64,000 nucleotides of DNA from Pseudomonadales bacterium (GTDB lineage Bacteria; Pseudomonadota; Gammaproteobacteria; Pseudomonadales; Pseudohongiellaceae), in the NCBI GenBank assembly GCA_032250895.1, contig JAVVEZ010000001.1, positions 31,831 to 95,830 on the forward strand, given 5' to 3'. The translations under genes were made by a program, and so were the position numbers. Shown here piece after piece: positions 9,258-60,900 of the stretch (positions are counted from its first letter, which is position 1; the number at the start of each line of letters is the position of its first letter). The notes below the pieces were generated by a model. It ran no database searches, had not been told where the DNA came from, and worked only from the letters and a program-made list of their open reading frames with translations.

Positions 9258-10706
<1,449 letters not shown>

Positions 10707-13227: not shown

Positions 13228-14034
13228 ATGAGCTACCATCGTTTTAAACAAAAGGTTTTTGTTCCGTTACTGGTAATGCCGACTCTGTTTTTTTTGACGG
13301 GTTCGGCAAGCGGCCAGGATACCGTGGTGAATACCCAGATATTGGACCGGGCAGGGGAAATAGCAGAAAAGGCTTTTGCAGCCGCCAAAGAATCCCAGGT
13401 CAGGATCAATAAGTTATCCGACCAGGCTGATGAATTGCTCGGCCAATACCGGGATGAAGCCAAAATCGTCGATGGCCTGGTGGTTTACAACGCCGGCATG
13501 CGAAGAACCATCGCGGAGCAGGAAAAAACCATTGCCCGTTATGACAAATCGATCACTGAAGCCGCCGAGCTGCAGAGGCAGATCCCCCCTCTGATGGAAA
13601 GAATGATGGTGGCGCTGGAGCAGTTTGTTGCACTTGATCTGCCTTTCCAGGTAGAAGCCAGACAGCAAAGACTCGATCTGATCCGTGGTGCCTTTGATGA
13701 GGCCAACGTTTCCATTGCAGAAAAATTCCGTCTCGTTCTGCAGGCTTATCAAATAGAAAGCGGTTATGGCCGCACCATGTCCTCCTATACCGATAATCTG
13801 GAAATAAATGGTGTTGAAAGAGACGTGGATATTCTTCAGGTGGGTCGTATCGCCCTGATTTATCAAACCAGTGATCAGACGTCAACCGGGGTCTGGGACA
13901 AAAATGCCAAGCAGTGGCTTGCCTTGCCGGACAGTTACAGAAGGCCTGTGGCCAATGGCATTCGTATGGCGAAGAATCTGGCCAGTACCGAGATTCTTGA
14001 ATTACCGATTATTGCTCCGGAGTCAGTACAATGA
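13228..14034 (+). CDS. ttpB: DUF3450/TtpB-type periplasmic coiled-coil protein of a TonB2-type system
   Basis: 268 aa with a signal peptide and coiled-coil-rich sequence. ATGA overlap with the next gene. Position and size match the first gene of the Vibrio-type ttpB-ttpC-exbB2-exbD2-tonB2-ttpD cluster. Confidence 0.6.
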   Translation: MSYHRFKQKVFVPLLVMPTLFFLTGSASGQDTVVNTQILDRAGEIAEKAFAAAKESQVRINKLSDQADELLGQYRDEAKIVDGLVVYNAGMRRTIAEQEKTIARYDKSITEAAELQRQIPPLMERMMVALEQFVALDLPFQVEARQQRLDLIRGAFDEANVSIAEKFRLVLQAYQIESGYGRTMSSYTDNLEINGVERDVDILQVGRIALIYQTSDQTSTGVWDKNAKQWLALPDSYRRPVANGIRMAKNLASTEILELPIIAPESVQ

Positions 14035-15452
14035 ATTTTATAAGAAAAACGGCATTAACCTTTTCGGCTGGCTTCCTGTGTCTGTTCATGCAGCAGGTCC
14101 TGGCCCAGCAACCCGCAGCGGCGCCAGCTCCTGCAGTTCCACAAATGGCGAGCAGTCTCGATGACCTGCTGAAGAAAGTCGAAGAGGCGCGCCTGAATGA
14201 GACGGAAGAACAAAAACAAAGAGAAGCCCAGTTCCGGGCCAATGTCAGTCAGCAGCAGTCTCTGTTGAATGAGATGCGGCAACGACGTGCGAATGAAGAA
14301 CGGATCAGTGTGGATCTGGAAAGCAAATACAATGAAAATGAAATCATCAAGGCCCAGCGGGATGCCACGCTGAAAGAGCGCCTGGGTGATCTGGATGAAT
14401 TGTTTGGTACCATTGCCGGTGTGGTAGGCGATACCCGCAGCAATTTTGAAGCCTCCCTGGTCAGTGCCCAGTTCCCGGGCCGGGAAGCTTTTCTGGATGA
14501 ACTGGCGGCAACCGCTACCAGCGACTCTGATCTGCCCAGCATTGAAGAGTTGGAAAGACTGTGGTTCTACCTCTTGCAGGAAATGACCGAATCTGGCCGG
14601 GTGTCCGAATTCACCGCCAATGTCGCACAGCCTGATGGCACTCAGAGTGAGCAGGCAGTGGTCCGTATCGGCTCCTACAATATCGTCTCCAATGGCCAGT
14701 ACCTGACCTTCAATCCCAACACCAAGCGTCTGAGCGTACTGCCCAGGCAGCCTGCTGGATACACGGATACTGCCGTGGCCATCCAGAATGCGACATCCGG
14801 ATTCACCACTGTAGGTATCGACCCTACCGGTCCCACCGGCGGTTCCTATCTGGCAGCGCTGATCAGCAGTCCAAACCTGCAGGAGCGCGTTGAGCAAGGT
14901 GGTACGGTGGGTAATATCATCATTGCGCTGGGTATCGTGGCCTTGTTGTTTGCGCTGGAAAGGTTGTTCACACTGGGCATGATCGGTTCCAAGGTGAGCT
15001 CACAGCTCAAGCACCCTGGCAAGCCCAACAAGAACAATCCGCTGGGCCGGGTCCTGATGGTCTATGAAAGTGACCGAACCATGGACATCGAAACCCTGGA
15101 ACTGAAGCTGGGTGAGGCCATCCTGCAAGAGACACCAAAGCTGGAGAAATTCCTGACCCTGCTGAAGATTATCGCCACAGTAGCTCCTTTGATGGGTCTG
15201 CTCGGAACGGTAACCGGTATGATCCAGGTGTTTCAGGCCATTACCTTGTTCGGTACCGGCGACCCCCAGATCATGGCGGGTGGTATTTCCGGCGCCTTGG
15301 TGACAACTGTTTTGGGTCTGGTTGTGGCGATTCCGACGGTACTGCTGCATACCCTGGTAAAAGGGCGCAGTGACCGCATCATCCATGTGCTGGAAGAACA
15401 GGCCACCGGTATCATTGCCAGAAAATCCGAGGCTGGTGAATCAAAAGCTTAA
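14031..15452 (+). CDS. ttpC: Large MotA/TolQ/ExbB-family proton-channel protein (TtpC-type)
   Basis: 473 aa. Long periplasmic N-terminal domain plus a C-terminal MotA/TolQ/ExbB channel motif (VAPLMGLLGTVTGMIQVFQAI). Confidence 0.8.
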   Translation: MNFIRKTALTFSAGFLCLFMQQVLAQQPAAAPAPAVPQMASSLDDLLKKVEEARLNETEEQKQREAQFRANVSQQQSLLNEMRQRRANEERISVDLESKYNENEIIKAQRDATLKERLGDLDELFGTIAGVVGDTRSNFEASLVSAQFPGREAFLDELAATATSDSDLPSIEELERLWFYLLQEMTESGRVSEFTANVAQPDGTQSEQAVVRIGSYNIVSNGQYLTFNPNTKRLSVLPRQPAGYTDTAVAIQNATSGFTTVGIDPTGPTGGSYLAALISSPNLQERVEQGGTVGNIIIALGIVALLFALERLFTLGMIGSKVSSQLKHPGKPNKNNPLGRVLMVYESDRTMDIETLELKLGEAILQETPKLEKFLTLLKIIATVAPLMGLLGTVTGMIQVFQAITLFGTGDPQIMAGGISGALVTTVLGLVVAIPTVLLHTLVKGRSDRIIHVLEEQATGIIARKSEAGESKA

Positions 15453-15484
15453 CTTAAGCTGGATCTACTTTTGGAGAAGAGCTT

Positions 15485-16021
15485 ATGTATTTTGCTTTAA
15501 TGGAAAGTATCGAATCCATCTCTGCTTTCATGGAGAGGGGTGGGCAGGTGCTCTGGCTGATTGCGCTGCTGCTGTTTGTAAAATGGACCCTGTTGTTTGA
15601 ACGTGCGTGGTTTCTCAAAACCACGCACAAGAAAAATGTCAGAGCCGCGTTGAGCGAATGGGAGGCCAGGTCTGACAAGAGCTCCTGGAATGCCCATGCC
15701 ATCAGGCAGCAGTTGATTTCAGGCGTTTCCCTCGACCTCAAATCCACCATTCCGGTGATCGAAGTCCTCGTGGTGATCTGTCCCCTGCTCGGTCTGCTGG
15801 GTACCGTGACCGGCATGATCGAGGTCTTTTATGTGATGGCCGTGACCGGCGGTGGCGATGCCAAGCAGATGTCCGGGGGGGTCGCCAAGGCGACCATTCC
15901 CACTATGGCAGGCATGGTGGGGGCGTTGTCCGGAATTTTTGCCAGTAATTGGTTAAAGCACAAGGCTACTATGGAAATGGAGTTGTTGGAAGACCACCTC
16001 ACCATTCACCATGGACACTAA
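15485..16021 (+). CDS. exbB: ExbB/TolQ-family proton channel protein
   Basis: 178 aa, three TM helices, motif CPLLGLLGTVTGMIEVF. Confidence 0.88.
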   Translation: MYFALMESIESISAFMERGGQVLWLIALLLFVKWTLLFERAWFLKTTHKKNVRAALSEWEARSDKSSWNAHAIRQQLISGVSLDLKSTIPVIEVLVVICPLLGLLGTVTGMIEVFYVMAVTGGGDAKQMSGGVAKATIPTMAGMVGALSGIFASNWLKHKATMEMELLEDHLTIHHGH

Positions 16022-16045
16022 AACGAGCCAAGCAGCAGGTCAACT

Positions 16046-16450
16046 ATGAAAGGTTTTGGAAAAGCAAAAGATGAAGAGCAGGCGGGTGAGATCGATCTCA
16101 CCCCCATGCTCGATGTAGTATTTATTCTGCTGATCTTCTTTATCGTGACGGCGGTTTTTGTCAAGGAAGCCGGCTACGATGTTTTGAGGCCGGTTGCTGC
16201 CACCAGTGAGCCGACGACCATGGAACCCATTCTCATTGCGATTTCTCCGGCCGGTGAGATATGGATGGATGGCGATATCGTACTGCCACGGAATGTCCGG
16301 CTGAGAATTGAGCAGCGGGTGGCAGAATCACCGAATGCCGGCGTTGTCATACAGGCAGATCAGGGGGCACCCAATGAGTTTGTCCTGATCGTACTGAATG
16401 CAGCCAGGGAAGCTGAGGTTACCAATGTACAGATTGCAGCGGAGGAATAG
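16046..16450 (+). CDS. exbD: ExbD/TolR-family protein
   Basis: 134 aa. Has the conserved Asp-containing TM region (EIDLTPMLDVVFILLIFFIV). Confidence 0.9.
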   Translation: MKGFGKAKDEEQAGEIDLTPMLDVVFILLIFFIVTAVFVKEAGYDVLRPVAATSEPTTMEPILIAISPAGEIWMDGDIVLPRNVRLRIEQRVAESPNAGVVIQADQGAPNEFVLIVLNAAREAEVTNVQIAAEE

Positions 16451-16453
16451 GTC

Positions 16454-17068
16454 ATGATCAGAATTGTCAATCTTGGTATTGCAGTTTTGTTGGCGGCAGT
16501 CGTTACCACTTCATTGTTTTTTCTGATGCAGCTGTTGATTGCTTCGGGGCTGACTCAGCCGGAGCGCGGTGAGCAGCGAAAGATTGCGGATATCACGATG
16601 CCGCAACAGGAAGTGGTGATCCAGCGTCAGGAACCGAAACCTGAAAAGGTGGAGGAACCCGAGGAGATACCCGATCTGCCTGATCAGACCATTCAATTGA
16701 CGGCTCCCACCGGCCCCGGGATCAGCCTGGCAAGAGTGAATATTGATCTGGGTGACGTTGGCAATGGTGCCACTATTTCGGCAGCGGATGCCGAATATCT
16801 GCCCATTGTAACGATTGCCCCCCAATACCCACAGCGAGCGCTGGCAAGGGGCATCGAGGGCTGGTGCCAGGTGATGTTTACAGTGACTGAAAATGGTACG
16901 GTCGTGGACCCTGTCGTGGTGGATGCGGAACCGCCGAATATTTTTGACAGCTCTTCGATAAGGGCTGTACAGCGCTTCAAATTCAATCCACGGACCAAGG
17001 ATGGTCAGCCTGTCAGAACGCCTGGTGTCCAATACGTTTTCCGTTACAATCTTGATCAGGATCAGTAA
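16454..17068 (+). CDS. tonB: TonB energy transducer (TonB2-type)
   Basis: 204 aa. N-terminal TM helix, a Pro/Glu-rich spacer (QEPKPEKVEEPEEIPDLPDQ) and a TonB_C domain (YPQRALARGIEGWCQVMFTVTENGTV...RFKFNP). Confidence 0.88.
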   Translation: MIRIVNLGIAVLLAAVVTTSLFFLMQLLIASGLTQPERGEQRKIADITMPQQEVVIQRQEPKPEKVEEPEEIPDLPDQTIQLTAPTGPGISLARVNIDLGDVGNGATISAADAEYLPIVTIAPQYPQRALARGIEGWCQVMFTVTENGTVVDPVVVDAEPPNIFDSSSIRAVQRFKFNPRTKDGQPVRTPGVQYVFRYNLDQDQ

Positions 17069-17081
17069 AAGGGCCAATGAC

Positions 17082-18485
17082 ATGAACAAAGAGAATATAA
17101 ACAAGCTCAAAATGTCCCGGAATTTATGTGCGGGTTTTACGTCCCTGACACTCGCCGCCGCCTTTCTGACGGTCTTGCCGGTAGTCGATTCGGCCATCAA
17201 CCTGAATATGTTCAGCCATACCCAGGTGCTGGCACAAAGAGCCGCCGATGAGACCAGGCCCCCGCCAGCCACCCGGCAGGCGCAGACTCTCAGCCAGAGA
17301 GTGTTCCGTGTGATTGAAAATGTCATGGAACTGCGCGACGAGAAGGAAGACTATGCCGGTGCTCTCAAGGCACTGGATGAAATCAAGGCCATGAATGACG
17401 CAGGGCGGCTCAATGATTATGAACAGTTCACCATGTGGCTGTTCTACGCCAGTATCGACCAGGCCCAGGAACGCTATGCAGAAGCCGTCCTCTCCTATGA
17501 GCAAATACTGAAGCTTCCGAACCTGACACCAGACCAGCGCGAGCAGGCCCTGTCAATTATTGGGCAGCTCTACTATGTGCTGGAAGACTACCGGAAAGCC
17601 ATCGATGCGCTGAAAAAATATCTGGAAGTGGCAGTCGACCCCAGCCCGGATATGTATCTGCGCATAGGTACGGCCTATTATCAGCTCGATGAGTTCCAGG
17701 AAGCCATTCCCTTCGTTTTGCGCAATATGGAACTTGAGCTCGCTTCCGGTGATCTCGTTCCCGAATCCACTTATGGCCTGTTGAGGGCTCTCTATCTGTC
17801 GGTGGAGGATTATCCCAAGGCCAAACAGGTCCTGCGGGAGATGGTCGTGCTCTTCAACAAGCCTGAGGACTGGGGTTTTCTGGCTTCCATTCACGGTCAG
17901 ATGGAAGAGTTTCCGCAGCAACTTCAAACCTACTATGTCGCCAACGCCATGGGTTATCTGGAATCGGAGAATCAGCTGATGAATCTGGCTTTTCAGCTTT
18001 TCAACAACGATAATCCTTACGGTGCGGCAAAACTGGTGGCCGATGGCATTGCCGCTGGCGTGATCAAGGAAACGGAAAGCAACCTGTCTTTCCTGTCACA
18101 GAGCTGGCAGATTGCCCGTGAAGATGAAAAGGCCATCGAGCCCTTGATAAAGGCTGCGGAAATTTCGGAAGAGGATGCCGGCGAGCTGTATGCACGTTTG
18201 GGCCGGGCCTATCTCAACCTGTCGGAGTTTAAAAAGGCTGCTGATGCTTTCGAGACGGCTTTGAAGGAAGGTAAACTGGACCGTCCGGATCAGGTGCGTA
18301 TCACGCAGGCGAGAGCCTTGATGGATGCCAAGGAATTCGACAAAGCCTTGACTGTCCTGAAAGAAGCTGCAAAAGATCAACGCAGCAAAACGCTTGCCAA
18401 TACCTGGATCAAGGTGGTGGAAAGTGAGAAAGCCAGGGAGGACTCTCTGCAAGAAAGGAGAGAACTCTACAAAGGTTTTTTCTGA
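17082..18485 (+). CDS. ttpD: TPR-repeat protein, TtpD-type last gene of the TonB2 cluster
   Basis: In-frame ATG at 17082 (MNKENINKLKMSRNLCAGFTSLTLAAAFL... signal peptide) within ORF 17001-18485. TPR-like repeats are present throughout. Followed by a strong terminator. Confidence 0.65.
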   Translation: MNKENINKLKMSRNLCAGFTSLTLAAAFLTVLPVVDSAINLNMFSHTQVLAQRAADETRPPPATRQAQTLSQRVFRVIENVMELRDEKEDYAGALKALDEIKAMNDAGRLNDYEQFTMWLFYASIDQAQERYAEAVLSYEQILKLPNLTPDQREQALSIIGQLYYVLEDYRKAIDALKKYLEVAVDPSPDMYLRIGTAYYQLDEFQEAIPFVLRNMELELASGDLVPESTYGLLRALYLSVEDYPKAKQVLREMVVLFNKPEDWGFLASIHGQMEEFPQQLQTYYVANAMGYLESENQLMNLAFQLFNNDNPYGAAKLVADGIAAGVIKETESNLSFLSQSWQIAREDEKAIEPLIKAAEISEEDAGELYARLGRAYLNLSEFKKAADAFETALKEGKLDRPDQVRITQARALMDAKEFDKALTVLKEAAKDQRSKTLANTWIKVVESEKAREDSLQERRELYKGFF

Positions 18486-22413: not shown

Positions 22414-23040
22414 TTATGTTCTTTGCAATTTGATCGCGACGCACTGGTGATACACGTCATTGTTGTCGCCGGGTGAGGTGTTATAGACACCATGGAATCC
22501 CCGTGCAGGGTCTTCCATGACCTGAATTACTTGCAAGGTACAGTTGTCACATTCCACATCCGGCAGGGTAAGCTGCCAGGTATAGGTGGCTGCCGTGCCG
22601 CGCAGATGAGGATTCAGATAGTCCATCAACACCGTTGCATTATTGAAAAAGTCGCCATCCTCTGCCGGGTTGCCGGGGCGGCATTGATCGTTTTCATCGA
22701 TGGGACAACCGCCGTCACGATTCGGATCCTGGGCCACGATCCAGCGTGGATCCAGGAAATCATCGTCACCGTCGTTATCGAAGGCAATACGGAAATAACC
22801 GGGGTGAGAAACATATTCCGCGACACTCAACGTGATGGTCTCACCGGGCTGATAGGTGTAGGACGCGCCGGTGGCGATGCCATCAGGATTTCCGCAGGGG
22901 GCCATCTTGGTATCCGCTCCCCGTTCTCCCTGCGCAAATTTGGCGACATGCGTGCCGGCCCGCTCCAGGTCGATATGGGCCTGGCTCAGTCCGGGAATGG
23001 CGAGCAATGCAAAAAGTGCGAAGCTGGTGTTGATGTTCAT
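22414..23040 (-). CDS. Secreted Cys-rich protein whose predicted mature N-terminus is His. Candidate histidine-brace copper protein (LPMO-like).
   Basis: 208 aa. Signal peptide MNINTSFALFALLAIPGLSQA|HIDLER... Six Cys, further conserved-looking His/Tyr (SHPGYFRIAFD, VYHQC) and an acidic loop (DNDGDDDF). Confidence 0.45.
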   Translation of the reverse strand: MNINTSFALFALLAIPGLSQAHIDLERAGTHVAKFAQGERGADTKMAPCGNPDGIATGASYTYQPGETITLSVAEYVSHPGYFRIAFDNDGDDDFLDPRWIVAQDPNRDGGCPIDENDQCRPGNPAEDGDFFNNATVLMDYLNPHLRGTAATYTWQLTLPDVECDNCTLQVIQVMEDPARGFHGVYNTSPGDNNDVYHQCVAIKLQRT

Positions 23041-25480: not shown

Positions 25481-27229
25481 TTACATCCGTTCCAGGGTTT
25501 CGATACCCAGCAGTTCCAGCCCCTGTTGCAGGGTTCTGGACGTCAGCAGGCACAATCTGAGACGGGACTCCCGCACGGCGTTTTCAGCCTTGAGGACCGG
25601 GCAGGCTTCATAAAATTTCATGAAGACACCGGCCAGTTCGTAAAGATAGAGGCAGAGCTGATTGGGGAACCCGTCGCGTGCCACGGTCTCGACCACATCG
25701 GTAAACTGCAGCAGTTTGAGTGCCAGGTTCTTTTCTGCGGCTGCTCTGATGAGGATTGGAAGGCTGCTGCGAGTGTCTATCTCTTCACGTCGAAAGATGC
25801 TGCTGATTCTGGCATAGGCATAAAGCAGATAGGGCGCGGTATTACCTTCAAAGGAGAGCATGCTGTCCCAATCAAATACATAATCGCTGTTGCGGTTTTT
25901 GGAGAGATCGGCGTATTTGACGGCGGCAATGCCGACGACTTCGGCAATACGACGTTTCTCGGTTTCAGCCAGATCGGGATTTTTGCTGCTGACCAGTTTG
26001 AAGGCGCGTTCAACGCTTTCCGCCAACAGATCGATCAGTTTTACCGTGCCGCCGGTGCGGGTCTTGAAGGGCTTGCCGTCCGCGCCCATCATGGTGCCGT
26101 AGGACAGGTGTTCCAGCGAGCAGTGGGCAGACGCCAGGCCTGCTCGTTTCGCCACGGCAAATACCTGCTGAAAATGCAGGGTCTGGCGGGCATCGACCAC
26201 GTACAGCACCCGATCGGCCTGCAATACCTGGCTGCGGTAGCGGATGGCGGCGAGATCGGTGGTCGCATATAGATAGCCACCACCGGATTTCTGCACGATG
26301 GTCGGCAGGGCTTTGCCATCCTGGTTGCGGAATTCGTCCAGGAAAACACATTTGGCACCTTCAGATTCACGGAGTAATCCGGCCTGATCCAATAGTTGAA
26401 TCACTTGTTCCAGCTTGTCGTTATAAAAACTCTCTGGAACAATGTCATGGGCTGTCAGGGTGACATTGAGTTTTTCATACAAGTGCTGACAATGTGCAAT
26501 GGATACCTCGATAAACCGGTGCCACAGGGCCAGACAGACGGGATCTCCGGATTGCAATTTGACGACATTGTCGCGAGCGACTCTGGCAAAATTTTCGTCA
26601 GTATCAAAACGCTGTTTTGCAATGCGATAAAAGGTCTCCAGATCCGCCAGTTCTCTGGCGGCAGTGTCTTCGTCCTGCTCCAGTTCCAGCATATGGGTGA
26701 TCAGCATGCCGAACTGGGTCCCCCAGTCGCCGAAATGGTTCTGCCGGATCAGGGTATGCCCCAGATAATCCAGGGTGCGGGCGATGGCATCGCCGATAAT
26801 GGTGCCACGTAAATGGCCCACGTGCATTTCCTTGGCCAGGTTGGGCGAGGAATAATCGACGACGATGGTCTGTGGCGCGGTACTGAGTTCCACCAGGCGG
26901 CCCTGGTTCAGCCGGGTGACCTCGGTGGCGAGAAAGTCCGGGGAGATGGCGATATTGATGAAGCCGGGCCCGGCCAGTTCCACTTTTTCGGCGATTCCCC
27001 CCAGATCCAGTTGAGCCAGCACCTGCTGTCCGAGTTCACGCGGATTCTGCTTTAATCGTTTTGCCAGTGCCATGATACCGTTGGCCTGGTAGTCTCCGAA
27101 CTGCTCGGATTTGGAATAGTTGATGAGGGCCTGACAATCGGCTTCGCCGGTGATTGCGGAAAGTACCAGGCTGATTTTGTTATCGAGGACTTGCTTGAGA
27201 TTCATGTTGAGTGATGGCCCCTGCGTCAA
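25481..27229 (-). CDS. argS: Arginine--tRNA ligase
   Basis: 582 aa. Class I HIGH-type motif (HVGHLRGTIIGDAI), the anticodon-binding DALR-type C-terminus and a terminal ...ERM. Confidence 0.96.
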   Translation of the reverse strand: MTQGPSLNMNLKQVLDNKISLVLSAITGEADCQALINYSKSEQFGDYQANGIMALAKRLKQNPRELGQQVLAQLDLGGIAEKVELAGPGFINIAISPDFLATEVTRLNQGRLVELSTAPQTIVVDYSSPNLAKEMHVGHLRGTIIGDAIARTLDYLGHTLIRQNHFGDWGTQFGMLITHMLELEQDEDTAARELADLETFYRIAKQRFDTDENFARVARDNVVKLQSGDPVCLALWHRFIEVSIAHCQHLYEKLNVTLTAHDIVPESFYNDKLEQVIQLLDQAGLLRESEGAKCVFLDEFRNQDGKALPTIVQKSGGGYLYATTDLAAIRYRSQVLQADRVLYVVDARQTLHFQQVFAVAKRAGLASAHCSLEHLSYGTMMGADGKPFKTRTGGTVKLIDLLAESVERAFKLVSSKNPDLAETEKRRIAEVVGIAAVKYADLSKNRNSDYVFDWDSMLSFEGNTAPYLLYAYARISSIFRREEIDTRSSLPILIRAAAEKNLALKLLQFTDVVETVARDGFPNQLCLYLYELAGVFMKFYEACPVLKAENAVRESRLRLCLLTSRTLQQGLELLGIETLERM

Positions 27230-27463
27230 GGGGCGGCATTATATACTATTTCACTGTGCAGATTGACTCTGAGAGCTTGCTGAGTCAGGGCAAAGCTTCT
27301 GGCATAATGCGCAGGTCAGAATAGAGGGATTTTCCGGTCTGTTTAGGGAACTGGTGCAGAACTCTCGGAATCTCACGGCTGCAGGGGAAATATTTGTTCT
27401 GACTATCCGGTCAGTGAGGCAGTGTTTGAAATTTGGCATATGACGGTGTCACCAGAGGAAAAT

Positions 27464-28204
27464 ATGAATATTGACAATTTTGGATCAGGCCGGGCCACAC
27501 AGCGGGTTTTCCGCTCGGGTATCATCTTTATGTTATTGGTACTTGGCCTCAGTGGCTGTGCCCAAACCGGCGCGACCAGCCATAATGATCCTCTGGAGCC
27601 TTTCAATCGCAAGGTGAATACCTTCAACGATTATCTGGACCGTTTCTTTCTCAAGCCTGTTGCCCAGGCTTATACATTTGCAATCCCCAGCTTACTGCGC
27701 ACCGGTATCAGCAATGCCTTTGACAACATCAGTTACCCGCTGGTGATAGTCAACCAGTTTCTGCAGGGCAAGCCGGCCACCGGGGGGCAGGATTTGGCGC
27801 GTCTGCTGGTCAATTCGACAGCAGGGATAGGAGGGCTTTTCGATGTGGCTACCGGCTGGGGGCTGCCGGCCCATGATGAGGATTTCGGGCAAACCTTTGC
27901 GGTTTGGGGCATACCCAGTGGCCCCTATCTGGTGGCACCCTTGTTCGGACCTGTTACCATCCGCGATGGGATAGGCGATATTGGTGGTATTTTTGCTTAC
28001 CCCCCGACTTATTTTGACGATGTCTCCCTGCGTAATTCATTATATGGAGCCTCTTTGGTCGATCAACGTGCCAGACTGCTGAAAGCAGAGGAACTGGTCT
28101 CGGGAGACAGGTACCTGTTCATTCGTGATGCTTATCTGCAGCGGCGCGAGTTCCTGAATAACGATGGGGCGGTTTCTGAAACAGATCCCTTTCTGGATGA
28201 CTGA
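27464..28204 (+). CDS. mlaA: MlaA/VacJ-family outer-membrane lipoprotein
   Basis: In-frame ATG 27464 within ORF 27422-28204. Lipobox LVLGLSGC. MlaA hallmarks DPLEPFNRKVNTFNDYLDRFFLKPVAQAY and FGQTFAVWGIPSGPYLVAPLFGP. Confidence 0.9.
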   Translation: MNIDNFGSGRATQRVFRSGIIFMLLVLGLSGCAQTGATSHNDPLEPFNRKVNTFNDYLDRFFLKPVAQAYTFAIPSLLRTGISNAFDNISYPLVIVNQFLQGKPATGGQDLARLLVNSTAGIGGLFDVATGWGLPAHDEDFGQTFAVWGIPSGPYLVAPLFGPVTIRDGIGDIGGIFAYPPTYFDDVSLRNSLYGASLVDQRARLLKAEELVSGDRYLFIRDAYLQRREFLNNDGAVSETDPFLDD

Positions 28205-28220
28205 TTTTGAGGCATCTTTT

Positions 28221-28250
28221 TAGAGGTGCCCTTGATATAGAGGTGCCCTT
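28221..28250 (+). repeat. Tandem direct repeat TAGAGGTGCCCTT-GATA-TAGAGGTGCCCTT (period 17 bp) between mlaA and the RND gene. Candidate operator.
   Basis: Two perfect 13-bp copies read from the sequence, 44 nt upstream of the RND start codon. Confidence 0.3.
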
Positions 28251-28293
28251 CAAGACGGGACAACAGCATGTTTATGAGCAGGTACTGAATTAG

Positions 28294-30792
28294 ATGGTAA
28301 AAAGAAAAATATTGGCCTATGTCCGGCTATTCATGTCCGGGCGTTATCGTGAATGCCTGAATTATCCGATCCTGATTATTTTAGCCATCCTCTTGCTCAG
28401 TTCGCTTGCGATCTCGTATTCAGACGATTTCAGTTTTGACGCATCGGAAGATACGCTGGTGGCGGAAGGCGATCCAGACCTGGCCTACTACCGCGAGGTC
28501 AGTCAGAGCTTTGGCGGCGAGGAATTTCTGTTCCTGACCTATACGCCACGTTCCGCACCGGTGCTTTCTGCCGGAATCCTGAAGCGCCTCGATCAGCTGA
28601 TACAGAGACTGGAACAGGTGGAAGGCGTGAGTGGGGTGACCTCGATTTTTGATGCGCCACTGCTGAGCAGCCCACCGGTTCCTCTGACTGAACTGGCGAC
28701 GGGTTACCGGACACTGCACTCCCCTGACGTTGATCTGGACTTGGCAGCCAAGGAATTGACCGAGAGCCCTCTGTTTCGTGAGTTGCTGATATCGGCCGAT
28801 GGTCAGACAACGGCCCTGCGCATCGATCTCGACGGAAACCCGCAACTGGACATGCTGAAGGACAGACGCGATCGTCTGCGGCAGCTGCATGAACCTTCAG
28901 ATGAGGAAAAAGCAGAACTGGCAGAGCTGGAACAGAGCTATCGGAGCGAATATGCCCGCAGTCTGGTGCGCCGTGATACAACCCTGGCGGAACTGCGTAC
29001 GATCCGGGACAGTCTCGATAGCGACATTACTGCGCATCTGGGGGGAGTGCCACTGGTAGCCTCCGACATGATCGAATATGTCAAGAATGATATTGCCATC
29101 TTTGGCTCTGCGGTCATCATCCTGATCGCCATCATGCTCTTCATCATTTTCAGACAACTGCGCTGGGTGTTGCTGCCTCTGGTCAGCACCGCCATCACCG
29201 TGCTGCTGACTGTAGGGATACTGGGGTTTCTGCGCCAGGCAACCACGGTGATCTCGTCAAATTTCATCTCTTTGCTGACCATCATCACGATCTCTTTCGC
29301 CATTCATCTGATTGCCAGATACCGTGAGTTGAGAGCACAGAATCCGGATATTGCTCACACCGACCTGGTGTTCAGGACCATGAAGGACAAGCTGGCCCCC
29401 TGTGTCTATACCGCGTTGACGACCATCGTGGCCTTTGCCTCGCTGGTAACCAGTGAAATCGTCCCGGTCATGGATTTTGGCTGGATCATGTGCCTGGGTA
29501 TCGCGGTGTCCTTTGTTGTGACCTACAGCCTGTTTGCCGGACTTTTGCTGCTGCTTCCCAAGGGCGCGGCCAGCGCGACATTGCATCACGAGCCGGCGTT
29601 GACCCGGTTTCTGGGCCATATCTCGGCCAGATACGCCCCCCTGGTACTACTTGCCACGGTACTGTCCTATATCGTGGCTGCCGTGGGTATCAATCGCTTG
29701 AGCCTGGATAATCGTTTTGTTGAATATTTTCGTGAAGATACGGAAATTCATCAGGGCATGGCCTTCATCGATGAAAACCTTGGTGGCACCATCCCCATGG
29801 AAATCATTCTGAAATTTCTGCCTTATGAAGAACCGGAGCTGGATGCCGACAGCGATTTCTTCAGTGCTGAAGACGATCCCTATCCGCAACGTTACTGGTT
29901 TACACCTGACAAGCTGGAATATCTGGCTCGTCTGCAGGCCTATCTTGACAGTAAGCCGGAGATCGGCAAGGTCGTGTCGCTGTCCAGCCTGGAACAGGTT
30001 GCCCGAAGTTTCAACGATGGCAAGCCGCTGGGCTCAGTGGAATTGGTAGCCGTCCTCAGTGCCATGCCGGAACAGATTCGCAGGGAGCTGATTGACCCCT
30101 ATGCCTCTCCGGAGACAGGGATGATGCGGGTATCCACGCGAATTCATGAAACCGGGCCGCCTTATTCTCTGGATAACGTGATAAAGGACATTGAGTCCTT
30201 CGCTACCGATGAACTGGATTTTGCCGAGAGTGATGTTCGTGTCACCGGCATGGCCGTGTTGTTCAATGGCATGCTGGCGCATCTGTTTGATTCGCAGAAG
30301 TCCACGCTGATATTCGTGATTGCAGCCACCCTGGTCATGTTTGCGCTGCTGTTGCGCTCCGTGACATTGGCCGTACTTGGCCTGATACCGAATATTCTGG
30401 CGGCGGCTACTGTACTGGCCTTCATGGGCTTTGCCGGCATTCCCCTGGATATCATGACGATTACCATAGCGGCCATCATCATTGGCATTGGCGTGGACGA
30501 TGCGATTCATTATCTGCATCGCTTTCAGGAAGAATACGCTCTTGTGGGGGATGTGAAGACCGCTGTACTCAACAGCCACAGCAGTATCGGCGATGCCATA
30601 TATTACACCTCGGTGACGGTCGTCATCGGCTTTTCCGTGCTGGGTTTTTCCAACTTCATACCCACGGTATATTTTGGATTGCTGACGGCCCTGGCAATGG
30701 TGCTGGCATTGTTGGCCAACCTGACTGTCCTGCCCAGCCTGCTGGTGCTGGTTTATCGCCAGAAAAAAGCGGTACCGGCAGCATGGCCATGA
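28294..30792 (+). CDS. RND-superfamily exporter of the COG1033 / MMPL / HpnN-like type
   Basis: 832 aa. Two repeated halves, each with a large periplasmic loop followed by a multi-helix TM bundle (sterol-sensing-domain-like). There is no adjacent membrane-fusion or outer-membrane-factor gene. Confidence 0.8.
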   Translation: MVKRKILAYVRLFMSGRYRECLNYPILIILAILLLSSLAISYSDDFSFDASEDTLVAEGDPDLAYYREVSQSFGGEEFLFLTYTPRSAPVLSAGILKRLDQLIQRLEQVEGVSGVTSIFDAPLLSSPPVPLTELATGYRTLHSPDVDLDLAAKELTESPLFRELLISADGQTTALRIDLDGNPQLDMLKDRRDRLRQLHEPSDEEKAELAELEQSYRSEYARSLVRRDTTLAELRTIRDSLDSDITAHLGGVPLVASDMIEYVKNDIAIFGSAVIILIAIMLFIIFRQLRWVLLPLVSTAITVLLTVGILGFLRQATTVISSNFISLLTIITISFAIHLIARYRELRAQNPDIAHTDLVFRTMKDKLAPCVYTALTTIVAFASLVTSEIVPVMDFGWIMCLGIAVSFVVTYSLFAGLLLLLPKGAASATLHHEPALTRFLGHISARYAPLVLLATVLSYIVAAVGINRLSLDNRFVEYFREDTEIHQGMAFIDENLGGTIPMEIILKFLPYEEPELDADSDFFSAEDDPYPQRYWFTPDKLEYLARLQAYLDSKPEIGKVVSLSSLEQVARSFNDGKPLGSVELVAVLSAMPEQIRRELIDPYASPETGMMRVSTRIHETGPPYSLDNVIKDIESFATDELDFAESDVRVTGMAVLFNGMLAHLFDSQKSTLIFVIAATLVMFALLLRSVTLAVLGLIPNILAAATVLAFMGFAGIPLDIMTITIAAIIIGIGVDDAIHYLHRFQEEYALVGDVKTAVLNSHSSIGDAIYYTSVTVVIGFSVLGFSNFIPTVYFGLLTALAMVLALLANLTVLPSLLVLVYRQKKAVPAAWP

Positions 30793-30853
30793 GGTAGCAG
30801 AGCGATATGAGATTTGCTGTTTGTAATGTACATGAAAATTTCCCGGAGAGATT

Positions 30854-31489
30854 ATGAAAACGATGAATCTGGCCAGATTGATGACATTTCTGGTGTTTGG
30901 CATGATGCAGACAATGATTGCGATGGCGGCCGAAACCAAGGACCCGCAGCAGGTCATCAGAGAATCCACGGATCGGGTGCTGGCGACCATTGAAAAGCAG
31001 AAGGCCAGCAATGGTGGGAAGGTTGCCGATGGCATGGCCGAGGAATTGCTTGATGTTCTGGAGCCGGTCGTTGACTTTGCAGCCATTGCCCGAGGAGTAA
31101 TGGGCAGCCATGCCAAGCTTGCCACGCCGGAACAGACACAGAAATTCGAAACGGTTTTCAAGGACAGCATGGCACAGTTGTATGCAAAAAGTTTTGAAGC
31201 ACTGGAAGTTGAAAAGGTGACGATTCTTGATCCGGCACCCGATTTTGACCCGGCCAGGGGCCGGGCGACGGTACAGGCCGAGGCGACGACAACGGATGGA
31301 AAAGTGTTTTCACTGAGCTATTCGATGCGTTCTGATGCCCAGCATGGATGGCGCGTGCGCAATATCATTGTCGATGGGATCAATCTCGGTCTGACCTATC
31401 TCAATCAGTTTGATGGTGCAATGAAGCGCTACGGCAATGATATCGGCAAGGTGATCTCGACCTGGACAGCCGAAATGGAATCGAAGTAG
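30854..31489 (+). CDS. MlaC/Ttg2D-family periplasmic lipid-binding protein (toluene-tolerance family)
   Basis: 211 aa with a signal peptide. Family-typical blocks: VLEPVVDFAAIARGVMG, FKDSMAQLYAKSF and WRVRNIIVDGINLGLTYLNQF. Confidence 0.75.
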   Translation: MKTMNLARLMTFLVFGMMQTMIAMAAETKDPQQVIRESTDRVLATIEKQKASNGGKVADGMAEELLDVLEPVVDFAAIARGVMGSHAKLATPEQTQKFETVFKDSMAQLYAKSFEALEVEKVTILDPAPDFDPARGRATVQAEATTTDGKVFSLSYSMRSDAQHGWRVRNIIVDGINLGLTYLNQFDGAMKRYGNDIGKVISTWTAEMESK

Positions 31490-54723: not shown

Positions 54724-55092
54724 ATGAAAAAACTGAAAGTGCTGATCGTGGATGATTCGGCAGAAGACACCAGAAAAGCCGCATTGCTACTGAAAAATGC
54801 CGGTCATGCGGTGATCGTTGCCAGCAATGGCATGGAAGGTGTGGCGATGGCAAAACAGCAGTTGCCGGATCTGATTCTGATGGACATCGTCATGCCCGGC
54901 CTGAACGGTTTTCAGGCCACCCGGCAACTGAGCCATGATGAGGTCACGAGAAACATTCCGGTGATAGTGGTCAGCGGCAAGGATCAGGAAACAGACAAGG
55001 TGTGGGCAATGCGACAGGGCGCAAAGGCCTATTTGACCAAAACCATCGAGAAAAAAATCTTGCTTGATACCATTGGAGATCTCATGTCATGA
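54724..55092 (+). CDS. pilH: CheY-like response regulator PilH
   Basis: ATG 54724 (MKKLKVLIVDDS...) within ORF 54679-55092. Has LMDIVMPGLNGFQATRQL, KDQETDKVWAMRQGAKAYLTKT. Confidence 0.9.
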   Translation: MKKLKVLIVDDSAEDTRKAALLLKNAGHAVIVASNGMEGVAMAKQQLPDLILMDIVMPGLNGFQATRQLSHDEVTRNIPVIVVSGKDQETDKVWAMRQGAKAYLTKTIEKKILLDTIGDLMS

Positions 55093-55673
55093 GCGCCATA
55101 TCCGGGATAAGCAACAATGCCTTTGAACAATTGTGGAATCTGGAGGAACGGGTTCGTCTCAGTAGCGCCTCATTGCCGAAGACAGTCGATACCCGCGAAC
55201 AGTGGTCAGGAGTGATGTGTCATATCGCCGGCAAAGATTTTATTGTGCCCTTGTCTGCCATCTCTGAAATTCTGGAACAGAAAGCTGTAACTTTTGTCCC
55301 TGCTTGCGCTGACTGGTTAAAGGGTTTGCTGAATCTGCGTGGGCGTTTATTGCCGATATTCGATGTCAGTGAATTCCTCGGGACTGATGACGGCAAAAGC
55401 AGTTCGTATCAGGTGATGGTTGTTGAGAAGGACAGCGTTTTTTGTGGCATTGCAGTAGAAAGGATAGATGGCATGCAGAAGTTCTATCAGGATGATTTCA
55501 ATGCACTGGATTCATGCCATGAAGCCGAGGTCGGGCCGGTCAGAGAGTTTGTCAGCCTGGTGACAGAAATGGAAGAAAAAATCTGGTATCAGCTGGATAT
55601 ATTCAGACTGGCATCACGCATCAGTCAGACCAGTCCAGCTTCTGTTGCAGACAACACAGACGTGGCAGCCTGA
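55089..55673 (+). CDS. pilI: CheW-like coupling protein PilI
   Basis: 194 aa. ATGA overlap with pilH. CheW fold blocks (FIVPLSAISEILE, LLNLRGRLLPIFDV). Confidence 0.85.
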   Translation: MSAISGISNNAFEQLWNLEERVRLSSASLPKTVDTREQWSGVMCHIAGKDFIVPLSAISEILEQKAVTFVPACADWLKGLLNLRGRLLPIFDVSEFLGTDDGKSSSYQVMVVEKDSVFCGIAVERIDGMQKFYQDDFNALDSCHEAEVGPVREFVSLVTEMEEKIWYQLDIFRLASRISQTSPASVADNTDVAA

Positions 55674-55741
55674 GTCCTGATTGTTCAAGGGCGCCTGATC
55701 GACAGCGCAACGAATAAATGTAGCGAATAAAGGAAACGACA

Positions 55742-57949: not shown

Positions 57950-60900
57950 TGGAGACCCGTGTGAAGCCATGGCAAAATTTTTATGCCTTCAGTAAGGTAA
58001 AAACCTGCATTGAACACCTTGTGCAGGAAGTGGCAATGACATTTGAAGCCTGTCTGGAGGAAGAACAGGCGGCGCTGATGTCGCCACAGCAGTTCTCACT
58101 GTGCAGCGCCAGGCTCGAACAGATTGCCGGTGTTCTGCGGGTAATGGAATATCAGGAACTGGCCTTGCTGGTGGATGAAATGCTTGGCTTGCTGAAGGAC
58201 TCAGCCAACGCGGCGATGCAGGCAGAACCCGCACGGCTTGTTGAAAGCCGGCAGTTGGTTTTTGTGGCGGCCACGGACTTTCCGGCAATTCTGGAAGGTG
58301 TGTTGTCGGGCCAGATTCAACACTGGTATGAATACAATCAGTTGTTCAATCGGATCCGCAAGGCCAGGAACATGAGCCTGGTGTTCAGCAGTCAGACCTT
58401 GTTGACCAAGCCGCACATCCCGTTCAAGGATAGGTTTGCGACACATCCGCAGCAAATGACGCGGCTGCTGGACCAGCATGTTGCTCATTACAACGAGGCC
58501 AAAACACAGATTCTGCAGAACCGGGATATCCGTCAGGGCATCAATGCCTTCCAGAATATCTTTACCAATCTGGAAGTCATGGGTCGGGATTTTCGACTGT
58601 CCACGTTGTGGGGCTTGTGTGCCACTCTGGCCGAGTCATTGTCAGAAGAACAGATGCGGCACGAGCATCCAGTGCTGAAATTGTTGTGCTCTTTCTCAAC
58701 TGTCATGCAGCGAGTCAGGGATAATGGCGCCAGGGCTCTGAATCAGAATATTCCTGAAGATATTCTGGAGAAAGTGCTGGATGCGCTGACAATGCCCTTG
58801 CATGAAACCAGCCGCTTGCTGGCAGTCAAGTGCTGGTTCAATCTGGACCTGGAACTGGCCAGGGCGCAGCGCCTCAAACAGCAGGACCTGCTGGTCAGTT
58901 TTTCCCGCAAGGATGCCTTCACCAAAACCATCCGTTTGTTGACAGAACGTATAAGCCAGTTGTCTGAACGGATCAACGGGGAGATTGCCGGCACGGATTT
59001 TTCACCGGGGCAGATTGAAGACTGTATTCAGGCACTTGAATCCATTCAGGCATCGATTCGTGTACTGGGCATCATGTCACCGGTGGAACTGATTGAGCAG
59101 TGCCTTGCCTGCGCACCCCGGCAGGCCAAGGTTTCAGACTCACTGTCACGGCAAAGCATTGTGGACTTTCTCAATCAATGCGCACAGATACTCTATCAGT
59201 GCGAACTGAGCCTGCTGAGTCATGCGGAAGAACTGGAAAGAGCCGTCTTTGTTTCCAGGGCCGGAAAGGACGCGGGTATGGCCTTCACCGGCGTCAAACT
59301 GAGCGTTGTACTCGAAGCCATCAAGAATCTTGAACAGGTCGTGATTGCGATCAACAATTATGTGGATGCAGACTACGATGGCAGCAAGCTGTCAGATGCC
59401 ATCAGACAACTCGAGGGTGCGCGTGTGGCGCTGATGGCGGTGCCGCTTGAGAAAGCGGTTGCCTATTGTGCCGGTGCCAGGGAGTTCGTCGAGCATCTTT
59501 TGCCGCATCAGGGGCTTGCAGTCAGGGAACGGGGCGCGGACGCGTCCTTTCATGCCTTTGCCCATTTGATCATCAATACCATTTTATACCTGGAACAGGT
59601 CAGTATCGGCAGAGCCGAAAAATTTGAACGCATCGTGCAGGAGTCCGACAAACTGCTGGAAAGCGTGCAGTCCGCGCTTGCGAATGAACCTGAGCGGCAG
59701 GCAGCGGCGATGGCTGAGGCCGGCAATGTCACTGCCGGATTCTCTGAAGAAGGCCCTGAACAGGATTCTTCTGATGACACAGGGCCTGTCAGTCAGCCTG
59801 AGCCGGACACCACTGTGCTCGAGGGGGATGAAGACATTCAGGCCATCTTTATTGAGGAAGCTGAAGAAATATTGCCCCAGATTCATGACAGCCATGACTT
59901 GCTGTGTCAAAACCTGCATGACGCCGAAGCTCTGGCCGATCTGCGCCGCAGTTATCATACCTTGAAGGGCAGTGGCCGGATGGTTGGTGCGGAGGCCCTT
60001 GCAGCACTGGCCTGGAGTGTCGAGAATCTGCTGAATCATGTGATCGGTGGCGCCGTGGTTCTTGATAACACAGTGCTGGGCGCCCTGCGGCAGGTGCAGG
60101 AGAAACTGCCGTTTCTGGTTGACGGATTCCGGAACAATGAACATGCTGCCGTCGTGGCCGACAGTGTTGCGGCTGAGGTCGCCTGGATGGACAGTTTTGT
60201 GACGGCGAATTCAGTGGCCGAGGCCCCGACAGGGGTGCTTGCAGAAACAGCAGGCACGGCCAGGGAAAAGCCGGCGCTGTACATTGTGACAAAGCAGCAG
60301 GACACAGCCATTGATACGCCGGTGCATGAAAGCGGCGACCTTGAACGGGCGGCTGCGGAAGATGATGTGGCATCGGAGTCTGCCAGCAAGGCCGACGGCG
60401 AGAGTTTGTCCGAGGTGTTTGCCATTGAAACTCAACGGCAGATAGGGCGCATCCGCCAATATCTGGATGATGACCTTGCTGCCGATGCAGAAGAACAGGC
60501 CATCACCACCAGCAGTTATCTTATTCCTGTACACACCTTGTATGGCAATTGCACAGTAGCGGAACTACAGCAATTCGGACATGTCGTGGGTCAGTTGGAG
60601 AGGCTGTTGCAGGACCATCCCTACCGTAAGGTCAACAATAGCCTGAAAATCCTGCTGAGTGAATTTTGTGAAATTTCGGCCCGGGTCACCCATGACATCA
60701 CAGGCACCACTGCCGTGGCATTGACGGATGCACTGCGCCAGGAGCTGGATGAGTTTCTGTCGTCGCTGGCGAGGGTCAGGGATGAATTGTCGGGACATGA
60801 GCCGCCCGATGCCTATGCTGTGGAGATTGATGCAATTGTCTCGACCATGAGCACAGACGCGGATTCCGATAATCATTATGCAGATGCTGACGACTCCCTG

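Follow-up and report, generated by a model that had tools for sequence, protein, structure and literature searches.

In the canonical Mla system, the outer membrane lipoprotein MlaA (with OmpC/F) and the periplasmic carrier MlaC operate together with the ATP-driven MlaFEDB transporter. Two preprints have advanced the hypothesis that an RND-superfamily protein can replace MlaFEDB. For hopanoids, HpnN was proposed to function with the MlaC-like HpnM and the MlaA-like lipoprotein HpnS (TIGRFAM GenProp0761; bioRxiv 10.1101/2025.07.29.667474, 2025 preprint). For Campylobacter jejuni, the operon Cj1371-1373, encoding MlaA (Cj1371), MlaC (Cj1372), and an MmpL-like RND antiporter (Cj1373), was proposed to constitute a route for (lyso)phospholipids that is driven by the proton motive force (PMF), probably anterograde, and independent of MlaFEDB (bioRxiv 10.64898/2026.08.28.747810, 2026 preprint). 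In Methylococcus capsulatus, the MmpL/HpnN-like RND protein BstA is accompanied by the dedicated periplasmic lipid-binding proteins BstB and BstC in sterol transport towards the outer membrane (PMC11713862).

We analyzed a 64-kb stretch of DNA from a marine gammaproteobacterium (a Pseudomonadales metagenome-assembled genome, MAG; the whole stretch is hereafter the window). The three co-directional open reading frames reported in the preliminary description are present on the forward strand and agree with the NCBI gene calls: a 246-residue MlaA/VacJ-family outer membrane lipoprotein (27464..28204; MDT8397042.1, named VacJ family lipoprotein), an 832-residue MMPL/HAE3-like RND-superfamily lipid transporter (28294..30792; MDT8397043.1, MMPL family transporter), and a 211-residue MlaC/Ttg2D-family periplasmic lipid carrier possessing a signal peptide (30854..31489; MDT8397044.1, ‘ABC transporter substrate-binding protein’). 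Profile searches matched all three family assignments (PF04333, PF03176, and PF05494, respectively). The genes are separated by 89 bp (MlaA-RND) and 61 bp (RND-MlaC), and the trio is flanked by opposite-strand genes on both sides, argS and icd upstream and a YedE-like and a CmcJ-like gene downstream. The 234-bp intergenic region between the divergent argS and MlaA-like genes (27230..27463, forward strand) is the presumed promoter region of the cassette; a sigma-70 consensus scan gave no match there, and the promoter is thus assigned by position. A Shine-Dalgarno-like GAGGA motif lies 6 nt 5' of the ATG at 27464.

The correspondence with the canonical Mla components extends to family, fold, lipobox, signal peptide, and MlaA motifs. 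The MlaA-like protein matches PF04333 over profile positions 2–194 of 195 (E 1.3e-70), its residues 35–241 match the Escherichia coli and Klebsiella MlaA structures 8i8r and 5nuo (E 2e-32), and the DPLExFNR...FN motif is retained. The lipobox, read in the translation, is LGLSG/C with Cys32 as the lipobox cysteine; 23 of the 30 cassette homologues share this residue, and the other seven have no aligned Cys. The protein scores 136 bits against the NCBIfam enterobacterial MlaA equivalog, for which the cutoff is 375, and it is therefore a paralogue or distant orthologue; the MlaC-like protein likewise falls below its enterobacterial equivalog cutoff. The locus departs from the canonical system in that an RND gene is interposed between mlaA and mlaC, and the energy source would be the PMF and not ATP. 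As had been claimed, a Pfam survey of open reading frames of at least 150 residues detected neither mlaF/E/D/B nor a membrane-fusion or OMF partner for the RND protein in the 64 kb.

The carrier matches PF05494 over profile positions 2–165 of 166 (E 1.4e-33), with a signal peptide read in the translation as ..IAMA/AE. Its best solved relatives are the Pseudomonas aeruginosa and Pseudomonas putida Ttg2D proteins (6hsy, 4fcz; E 3e-27), as compared to E 7.5e-5 for E. coli MlaC. The anticipated MlaC fold was recovered in the AF2 model (pLDDT 92.1): the top 11 Foldseek PDB matches are all MlaC/Ttg2D, with target-normalised TM-scores of 0.82–0.84 and 33–34% identity to Ttg2D. Ttg2D binds two glycerophospholipids or one cardiolipin (PMC8035174). 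With Ttg2D as the closest relative of the carrier, the cargo is most likely a glycerophospholipid, possibly with two diacyl lipids or one cardiolipin held per carrier in the same manner.

The RND protein matches PF03176 in two stretches (E 3e-40) and Patched/SSD, and its helices are consistent with 12 transmembrane (TM) segments and periplasmic loops at residues ~45–250 and ~470–650. A GIGVDDAIH motif lies in the helix taken as TM10, in the C-terminal TM bundle; the 61 aligned homologues all have D735 and H739, and at least 90% of them have D736. The AF2 model (pLDDT 85, pTM 0.78) retrieved MmpL4/5, MmpL3, HpnN, and NPC1 as best Foldseek matches with query-normalised TM-scores of 0.63–0.70, at 13–16% identity to the matches of the MmpL/HpnN group. 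By its predicted structure, the RND protein belongs to the MmpL/HpnN/NPC1 group of lipid transporters. The fold, two MMPL repeats, lipid substrates, and lack of an AcrA/TolC-type partner are shared with mycobacterial MmpL3/MmpL4/MmpL5 and Burkholderia HpnN; the partners differ, with MmpS and AcpM serving the mycobacterial MmpL proteins and MlaC-like and MlaA-like proteins present here. The protein scores 183 bits against the HAE3 model TIGR00921 (cutoff 352).

The architecture resembles that proposed for HpnN-HpnM-HpnS, and the cassette could accordingly be read as a true hopanoid, polycyclic isoprenoid, or sterol exporter of this or the BstA type. HpnM is the top NCBIfam match of the carrier, and HpnN is both among the NCBIfam matches of the RND protein and its best PDB sequence match. 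All of these scores fall far under their cutoffs: 126 of 752 bits (TIGR03480) and 70 of 1100 (NF052374) for HpnN, 69 of 160 for HpnM, and 38 of 1400 for BstA. The match to the HpnN structure spans only the TM region, residues 647–820, and the carriers BstB and BstC possess unrelated folds (PhnD-like and TRAP-T-like). The HpnM match is also non-specific, as a Microbulbifer stand-alone mlaC product from the ancestral mla locus likewise prefers the HpnM model (74 bits) to enterobacterial MlaC (56 bits). No shc or hpn gene was found in the window by the Pfam survey, and the sequences flanking 80 related loci contain no recurrent gene of this kind. Identification of the RND protein as HpnN was rejected; of its description as ‘HpnN/MMPL type’, the MMPL part holds and HpnN proper does not. 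As the carrier resembles a phospholipid carrier by sequence and fold, the cargo is probably not a hopanoid, and we regard a hopanoid-type module as very improbable.

The C. jejuni operon comprises the same three components, and the hypothesis put forward for it is the one considered here. In C. jejuni MlaC and the RND protein are translationally coupled, as are RND and MlaC in 10 of 38 relatives of the present cassette, where the genes overlap by 4–23 bp, mostly 4 or 8. The gene order differs, mlaA-mlaC-RND in the epsilonproteobacterium and mlaA-RND-mlaC in the marine gammaproteobacterium. [quoted passage not shown] The shuttle idea is not new, and the arrival of independent groups at the same model for analogous operons counts in its favor. 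The statement that the arrangement had not been characterized is accurate with regard to experiment; the association and the hypothesis are already in the literature in the two preprints cited above.

Comparison of loci bore out the expectation of synteny across many genomes. The trio occurs in the same order and strand in Chromatocurvus halotolerans, in MAGs assigned to the Pseudomonadales (one) and the ‘Magnetococcales’ (one), and in a lineage known from 24 metagenomic contigs, with unrelated flanking genes in each of the four contexts. Eighty genome loci with a related RND gene included 28 with MlaA-RND-MlaC, eight with RND-MlaC, and one with MlaA-RND and a 37-residue MlaC remnant. When only the 69 loci with adequate flanking sequence at both ends were considered, the counts were 25, 6, and 1, with 37 loci possessing neither partner; adjacent partners are evidently not required for members of the RND family to work or to be encoded. 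All-against-all clustering of the flanking open reading frames identified only MlaC (36 loci) and MlaA (29 loci) as recurrent neighbors, with no other real gene family present in more than seven loci. The adjacency of the trio is non-random. In a neighbor-joining tree, the 37 linked RND proteins fall into two neighboring clades together with just three unlinked loci, and the remaining 40 unlinked proteins fall into separate clades. Median gaps among the relatives are 35 bp (MlaA-RND) and 16 bp (RND-MlaC), a spacing typical of operons. Pairwise distances across 26 trios, taken without control for species phylogeny, are correlated at r=0.93 for RND-MlaC, 0.81 for RND-MlaA, and 0.79 for MlaA-MlaC (Mantel 0/2000 each). 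The cassette is kept together in many marine bacteria, and its co-location and co-inheritance establish functional linkage; physical hand-off between the components is a separate matter that we infer.

Functional linkage would also arise if the MlaA-like and MlaC-like proteins served an ATP-driven MlaFEDB encoded elsewhere in the genome and the co-regulated RND protein had a different envelope-lipid function, exchanging no lipid with them. MlaFEDB is widespread in Proteobacteria, the absence of mlaF/E/D/B pertains to the 64-kb window of the genome, and Ttg2D, the nearest relative of the carrier, is itself a bona fide partner of MlaFEDB. C. jejuni possesses a separate mlaFED in addition to its mlaA-mlaC-RND operon, and its authors allow for dual use (bioRxiv 10.64898/2026.08.28.747810); a variant in which the two Mla-like proteins serve both engines follows that suggestion. 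Several observations argue against service to an MlaFEDB elsewhere. Co-inheritance is tighter between RND and MlaC than between MlaA and MlaC, and translational coupling of RND with MlaC is frequent. The cassette relocates to unrelated contexts as one block, and two MAGs each carry two complete divergent trios (L006/L009 and L023/L026), which is hard to square with partners serving a single ABC system. In related orders, moreover, the ancestral mla locus has retained mlaC without mlaFED and mlaB. We consider service to a distant MlaFEDB unlikely.

Taken together, the family assignments, synteny, MlaC fold, and RND structural group make a functional RND-MlaC-MlaA module the best reading, and the balance of evidence leans towards the three genes forming one operon for a trans-envelope lipid-transfer module. 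The trio probably moves membrane lipids between the inner and outer membranes independently of the ATP-driven MlaFEDB transporter. In the proposed mechanism, the inner membrane MMPL/HAE3-type RND protein would draw a lipid out of the outer leaflet of that membrane and up into the periplasmic domains, driven by the proton gradient via Asp735 and Asp736 in the presumed TM10. The soluble MlaC-like carrier would dock, receive the lipid in its hydrophobic pocket, and diffuse across the periplasm, and the MlaA-like lipoprotein would receive or donate the lipid at the outer membrane. Of the hybrid shuttle envisaged in the preliminary description, the parts, fold, and synteny stand, and the hand-off, cargo, direction, and energy coupling are what we infer from them.

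Transport is most likely directed from the inner to the outer membrane, as known MmpL/HpnN-type RND proteins export. In the reverse direction, lipid at the outer membrane that is mislocalised or exogenous would be extracted by the MlaA-like protein; the MlaC-like protein would then carry it inward, and the RND protein would insert it into the inner membrane, akin to transfer from NPC2 to NPC1. The structural relatives of the RND model include NPC1 and NPC1L1, which accept lipid (sterol for NPC1) from a soluble carrier, and the canonical MlaA-MlaC pathway is generally regarded as retrograde. Against this, coupling to proton influx normally moves substrate outward, and all characterized bacterial MmpL/HpnN-type RND proteins are, to our knowledge, exporters; the sequence of the trio favors neither direction. 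Retrograde scavenging appears quite improbable.

In several Cellvibrionales-type genomes, mlaC stands by itself at the ancestral mla locus, which lacks mlaFED and mlaB.

The MlaA-RND spacer contains two direct copies of TAGAGGTGCCCTT (28221..28250, forward strand), at 28221-28233 and 28238-28250, the second ending ~44 bp 5' of the RND ATG. The description of this element as a perfect 13-bp tandem repeat is correct as to the perfect copies and incorrect as to a head-to-tail arrangement, since GATA intervenes and the period is 17 bp. It fell below the TRF threshold and was unscored, and TAGAGGTGCCCTT was found neither elsewhere in the window nor in the corresponding spacer of 14 related loci. 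No related locus carries it, and a role as a functional element is unsupported; the repeat is a lineage-specific local duplication of 17-bp period without conservation.

The trio comprises three forward-strand genes, encoding the MlaA-like lipoprotein (27464–28204; MDT8397042.1, PF04333), the RND transporter (28294–30792; MDT8397043.1, PF03176 MMPL) and the MlaC-like carrier (30854–31489; MDT8397044.1, PF05494). These coordinates agree with the NCBI gene calls for the source MAG, an uncultured Pseudomonadales bacterium. Opposite-strand genes lie on both sides: argS (25481–27229) forms the upstream border, a monomeric isocitrate dehydrogenase gene also lies upstream, and genes for a YedE-like membrane protein and a CmcJ-like oxidoreductase follow downstream. 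The preliminary description had reported three co-directional, adjacent genes with no mlaF, mlaE, mlaD or mlaB alongside, and both statements hold. A Pfam survey of the long ORFs (at least 150 aa) of the 64-kb window detected no Mla gene besides the trio, and no MFP, OMF or hopanoid (shc/hpn) gene; MlaF, MlaE, MlaD and MlaB were found neither in the window nor in the flanks of related trios. Scans for promoters and terminators were uninformative, with counts close to the shuffled expectation.

The MlaA-like protein scored 237.5 bits against PF04333 (Pfam gathering score, 25; E = 1.3e-70) over profile positions 2–194 of 195, matched MlaA structures at E = 2e-32, and aligned over its whole length to E. 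coli and Klebsiella MlaA, the N-terminal DPLExFNR...FN motif included. The previously noted lipobox LGLSGC is present in the translation (LLVLGLSG/CAQ, with Ala at +2), predicting a lipoprotein signal peptide. Of 30 cassette MlaA homologues, 23 have a Cys aligned with that of the lipobox; the other seven lack it at that position and come from relatives' loci L005 (the closest relative of the window), L010, L012, L022, L037, L041 and L072; these proteins may be secreted and not lipid-anchored, or their starts or alignment may be wrong. The carrier matched a nearly complete PF05494 profile (116 bits, cutoff 26; E = 1.4e-33) and bears a predicted cleavable signal peptide, as expected of the MlaC/Ttg2D-family carrier proposed at the outset. 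The 30854–31489 product is also predicted to fold as MlaC: its AlphaFold2 model has a pLDDT of 92, and the top 11 Foldseek matches all belong to the MlaC family. The best structures were Ttg2D of P. putida and P. aeruginosa (target-normalised TM-score 0.82–0.84, 33–34% identity), and by sequence, too, Ttg2D was the closer match (E = 3e-27 vs 7.5e-5 for E. coli MlaC). The cargo of Ttg2D is either a pair of diacyl glycerophospholipids or a single cardiolipin (PMC8035174). Relative to the canonical E. coli Mla system, both window proteins fall below the NCBIfam equivalog cutoffs, 136 vs 375 bits for MlaA (NF011672) and 26 vs 195 bits for MlaC (NF011697), in models built on enterobacterial sequences.

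The RND protein matched PF03176 in two stretches (E = 3e-40) and, in addition, a Patched/sterol-sensing TM repeat. It scored below the cutoff of the HAE3 subfamily (TIGR00921, 183 vs 352 bits) and below those for HpnN (TIGR03480, 126 vs 752 bits; NF052374, 70 vs 1100 bits), reached 38 bits against the BstA model (cutoff 1400) and was barely detectable with the MmpL3 model. Judged by these profile scores, no curated model of an RND lipid exporter comes close to it, and since even the HAE3 cutoff is missed, the protein represents a distinct clade with no curated model of its own. By sequence, the HpnN structure is matched in the C-terminal TM bundle only. In the AlphaFold2 model (pLDDT 85), the predicted helices fit 12 TM segments with two large periplasmic loops, and Foldseek superposed the model on MmpL4/5, MmpL3, HpnN and NPC1-type proteins (query-normalised TM-score 0.63–0.70, identity 13–16%). 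The earlier label of an “HpnN/MMPL type” exporter is thus apt in its MMPL part and in the fold similarity to MmpL, HpnN and NPC1, but not as HpnN membership, the HpnN cutoffs being missed widely. Within the motif GIGVDDAIH, D735 and H739 are invariant and D736 is at least 90% conserved among 61 RND homologues; D735 and D736 sit in helix 720–751, taken to be TM10, and the D735/D736/H739 pattern is that expected of a putative proton relay. The model also places a charged helical element (residues ~183–239, 28840–29010; helices 183–196 and 203–239) in the first periplasmic loop, from where it leads back to TM2. This element could be a docking site for the carrier; the best structural matches of the RND are MmpL4/5 proteins, and the PDB entries of these carry a coiled-coil domain annotation.

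Scanning one genome per species across 185,579 species yielded 80 loci with a related RND, for which the gene content of the stored flanks (±7–10 kb around each match) was read by profile search; a second count was limited to the 69 loci that had sufficient sequence to either side. MlaA, RND and MlaC occur together at 28/80 loci (25/69 well-flanked), RND and MlaC at 8/80 (6/69), MlaA and RND with a 37-aa MlaC remnant at 1/80 (1/69), and neither MlaA nor MlaC at 43/80 (37/69). The synteny of the trio is therefore confirmed in relatives, and its MlaA-RND-MlaC order recurs among unrelated neighbours in a Pseudomonadales MAG (RND 69% identical), Chromatocurvus halotolerans (65%), a “Magnetococcales” MAG (52%) and a metagenomic lineage on 24 contigs; Methylophaga MAGs have RND and MlaC only. 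In all-against-all clustering of the flank ORFs of the 80 loci, MlaC (36 loci) and MlaA (29 loci) alone recurred beside the RND. No fourth conserved gene (MFP, OMF, MCE or regulator) emerged from this clustering, which, with the Pfam result for the window, bears out the original view of an RND lacking a membrane-fusion or OMF partner.

In a neighbour-joining tree, the RNDs linked to MlaA or MlaC fall into two neighbouring clades with only 3 unlinked loci inside, and the remaining unlinked RNDs form separate clades; such unlinked members of the family are frequent in Pseudomonadales MAGs. Pairwise protein distances in 26 complete trios are correlated (r = 0.93 for RND-MlaC, 0.81 for RND-MlaA and 0.79 for MlaA-MlaC; Mantel 0/2000 for each of the three pairs), the distances being taken without independent control for species phylogeny. 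The estimated median gap is 35 bp from MlaA to RND and 16 bp from RND to MlaC, with RND and MlaC overlapping by 4–23 bp in ten pairs, mostly by 4 or 8 bp; RND-MlaC is the tightest and most closely co-inherited pair of the trio. Two MAGs each harbour two divergent complete trios (L006 and L009 in CAYFVJ01; L023 and L026 in JBBKXJ01), which suggests paralogous cassettes, possibly with different cargo. Taken together, the recurrent order, clustering in the tree, distance correlation, short gaps and double trios reveal a selectively maintained three-gene cassette; the adjacency is more than chance, and the cassette is a real, conserved operon.

In a Neptunomonas MAG (L017), MlaA and RND are followed at 9556–9666 by the 37-aa MlaC remnant, 59% identical to the MlaC homologue P0172; the cassette may be decaying here, or the assembly may be at fault. 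At L093 (5670–11374), an unlinked RND gene lies beside lipid-related neighbours, a divergently oriented gene for an AMP-binding, acyl-CoA synthetase-like protein and, downstream, one for a patatin-like phospholipase, a pairing seen in this one context only.

What is shown for the trio is the family and fold of each product, a conserved cassette, close gene spacing and co-inheritance; the best-supported reading is a PMF-driven, Mla-like shuttle. The RND would draw a glycerophospholipid out of the inner membrane and pass it to the MlaC-like carrier, which would in turn exchange lipid with the outer-membrane MlaA-like lipoprotein. A physical hand-off from RND to carrier to lipoprotein is probable, as is proton coupling of the RND; the cargo would be glycerophospholipid by similarity to Ttg2D, and the direction would be export after the examples of MmpL3 and HpnN. 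In a rival reading, the system would operate in the retrograde direction, in the manner of NPC1. The mechanistic idea first put forward for this locus is a reasonable, unproven one.

Export of hopanoids or sterols is a disfavoured explanation. HpnM is the best hit of the carrier; nevertheless, every Hpn model is missed widely, by the RND at the HpnN scores already given and by the carrier at 69 vs 160 bits for HpnM (TIGR03481). The window is devoid of shc/hpn linkage, and no extra family recurs in the flanks of the 80 loci. Moreover, a stand-alone mlaC of Microbulbifer, which resides at the ancestral mla locus, also fits HpnM better (74 bits) than the model of enterobacterial MlaC (56 bits). 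The best hit to HpnM is therefore uninformative, being generic for non-enterobacterial MlaC, and membership of the trio in HpnN/HpnM was rejected on the cutoffs and this control.

Outside the window's own genome, a distant homologue of the carrier in Microbulbifer harenosus occupies the ancestral mla position, with kdsD on one side and ibaG-murA on the other; mlaF, mlaE, mlaD and mlaB are missing there. All other contexts inspected likewise had a stand-alone mlaC at that locus: two MAGs, a Logan assembly, and one MAG each of Porticoccaceae and Cellvibrio. Genomes of this kind include Microbulbifer CP185860, GCA_048549915.1 and GCA_021323495.1. Altogether, seven loci have mlaC alone after rpoN-lptB-lptA-lptC-kdsC-kdsD(-yrbG): L085 (6001–6672), L086, L087 and L088 (6001–66xx), L089 (4550–5182), L090 (3022–3654) and L094 (7001–7630). 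Downstream, ibaG-murA-hisGD follows in 5/7, with other genes in the MAGs L086 and L094; at all seven loci, mlaF, mlaE and mlaD are absent upstream of mlaC and mlaB is absent downstream. A 104-aa ORF after mlaC at two loci was considered as a cryptic MlaB and rejected, as it had no STAS match. As mlaC is kept and genes to its left and right are gone, the pattern resembles loss of the ABC engine more than a move elsewhere. A rival account of the trio has its MlaA and MlaC serving an MlaFEDB complex whose genes lie elsewhere, either exclusively or alongside the RND. That a marine Pseudomonadales/Cellvibrionales lineage lost MlaFEDB, the RND family replacing it as inner-membrane partner of MlaC and MlaA, strikes us as rather unlikely. 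Were it true, the window cassette would represent a PMF-driven Mla pathway in compact form and not an accessory system; if those genomes lack mlaFEDB and have the RND family, the RND would be the replacement Mla engine of the lineage, and evolution would have exchanged one energy source for another in a core envelope pathway.

Phospholipid traffic between the membranes of Gram-negative bacteria, and the direction in which Mla components work, are still debated. With MlaA and MlaC hard-wired to a proton-driven RND, the trio amounts to a natural experiment in which the same carrier and outer-membrane parts meet a different engine. The cassette recurs in many marine Gammaproteobacteria and in MAGs labelled Alphaproteobacteria or Magnetococcales, and its culturable hosts include Chromatocurvus halotolerans DSM 23344 (GCA_004340525.1) and Marinobacter sp. 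ELB17.

Two preprints propose related systems. For hopanoids, HpnN (RND), HpnM (MlaC-like) and HpnS (MlaA-like) are proposed to act in a Mla-analogous manner in “Origin and transport of bacterial hopanoids”, and the TIGRFAM hopanoid genome property had already included a VacJ-like lipoprotein (bioRxiv 10.1101/2025.07.29.667474). In C. jejuni, mlaA (Cj1371), mlaC (Cj1372) and an MmpL3-like RND gene (Cj1373) form one operon with translational coupling, for which PMF-driven anterograde transport of phospholipid/lysophospholipid is proposed, with mlaFED located elsewhere (bioRxiv 10.64898/2026.08.28.747810). The three Campylobacter genes resemble the window trio in being adjacent and co-directional, but their order is A-C-RND and not A-RND-C, and no Campylobacter protein appears among the 120 RND homologues listed. 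Our literature searches returned no description of a marine gammaproteobacterial version, or of any beyond the hopanoid and Campylobacter systems. The arrangement, first presented as not characterised to date, is indeed experimentally uncharacterised, but the same idea is already contained in the two preprints. The window trio is distinguished by its gene order, by an RND from a clade that lacks a curated model and by a carrier resembling Ttg2D; it is a further, still hypothetical case of a kind already hypothesised, and it extends to further lineages an idea that until now had concerned hopanoid producers and Campylobacter alone.

The spacer between the MlaA and RND genes contains two perfect 13-bp copies (28221–28233 and 28238–28250). 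These had been described as a perfect tandem repeat, which is right as to the copies but slightly off as to their arrangement, 4 bp lying between them. The motif is absent from the corresponding spacer of 14/14 related loci and from the rest of the window, and the repeat was unscored by TRF. Confined as it is to the source genome, it was rejected as a regulatory site; a recent duplication with a 17-bp period explains it best, and a functional role has no support.

Elsewhere, the Pfam survey of the window recorded sdhAB-sucAB-lpd-sucCD, htpG, esterases, MFS transporters, GMC oxidoreductases and beta-lactamase-family proteins. It also recorded two forward-strand clusters that look ordinary: DUF3450-ExbB-ExbB-TonB-TPR at 13228–18485, a TonB2-type energy-transduction system whose ExbD region, before TonB, lies outside the scan, and a Pil-Chp type IV pilus chemosensory cluster at 55089–63711 with pilI/pilJ/chpA-like genes for a CheW-like protein, a PilJ-type MCP and a ChpA-like hybrid histidine kinase (1920 aa; Hpt, HATPase, CheW and receiver). 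On the opposite strand, 22414–23040 encodes a protein of 208 aa that contains Cys, is predicted to be secreted and matches no Pfam family; after its predicted signal peptide (..GLSQA/HIDL), His would be the mature N-terminus, a feature reminiscent of histidine-brace copper proteins.
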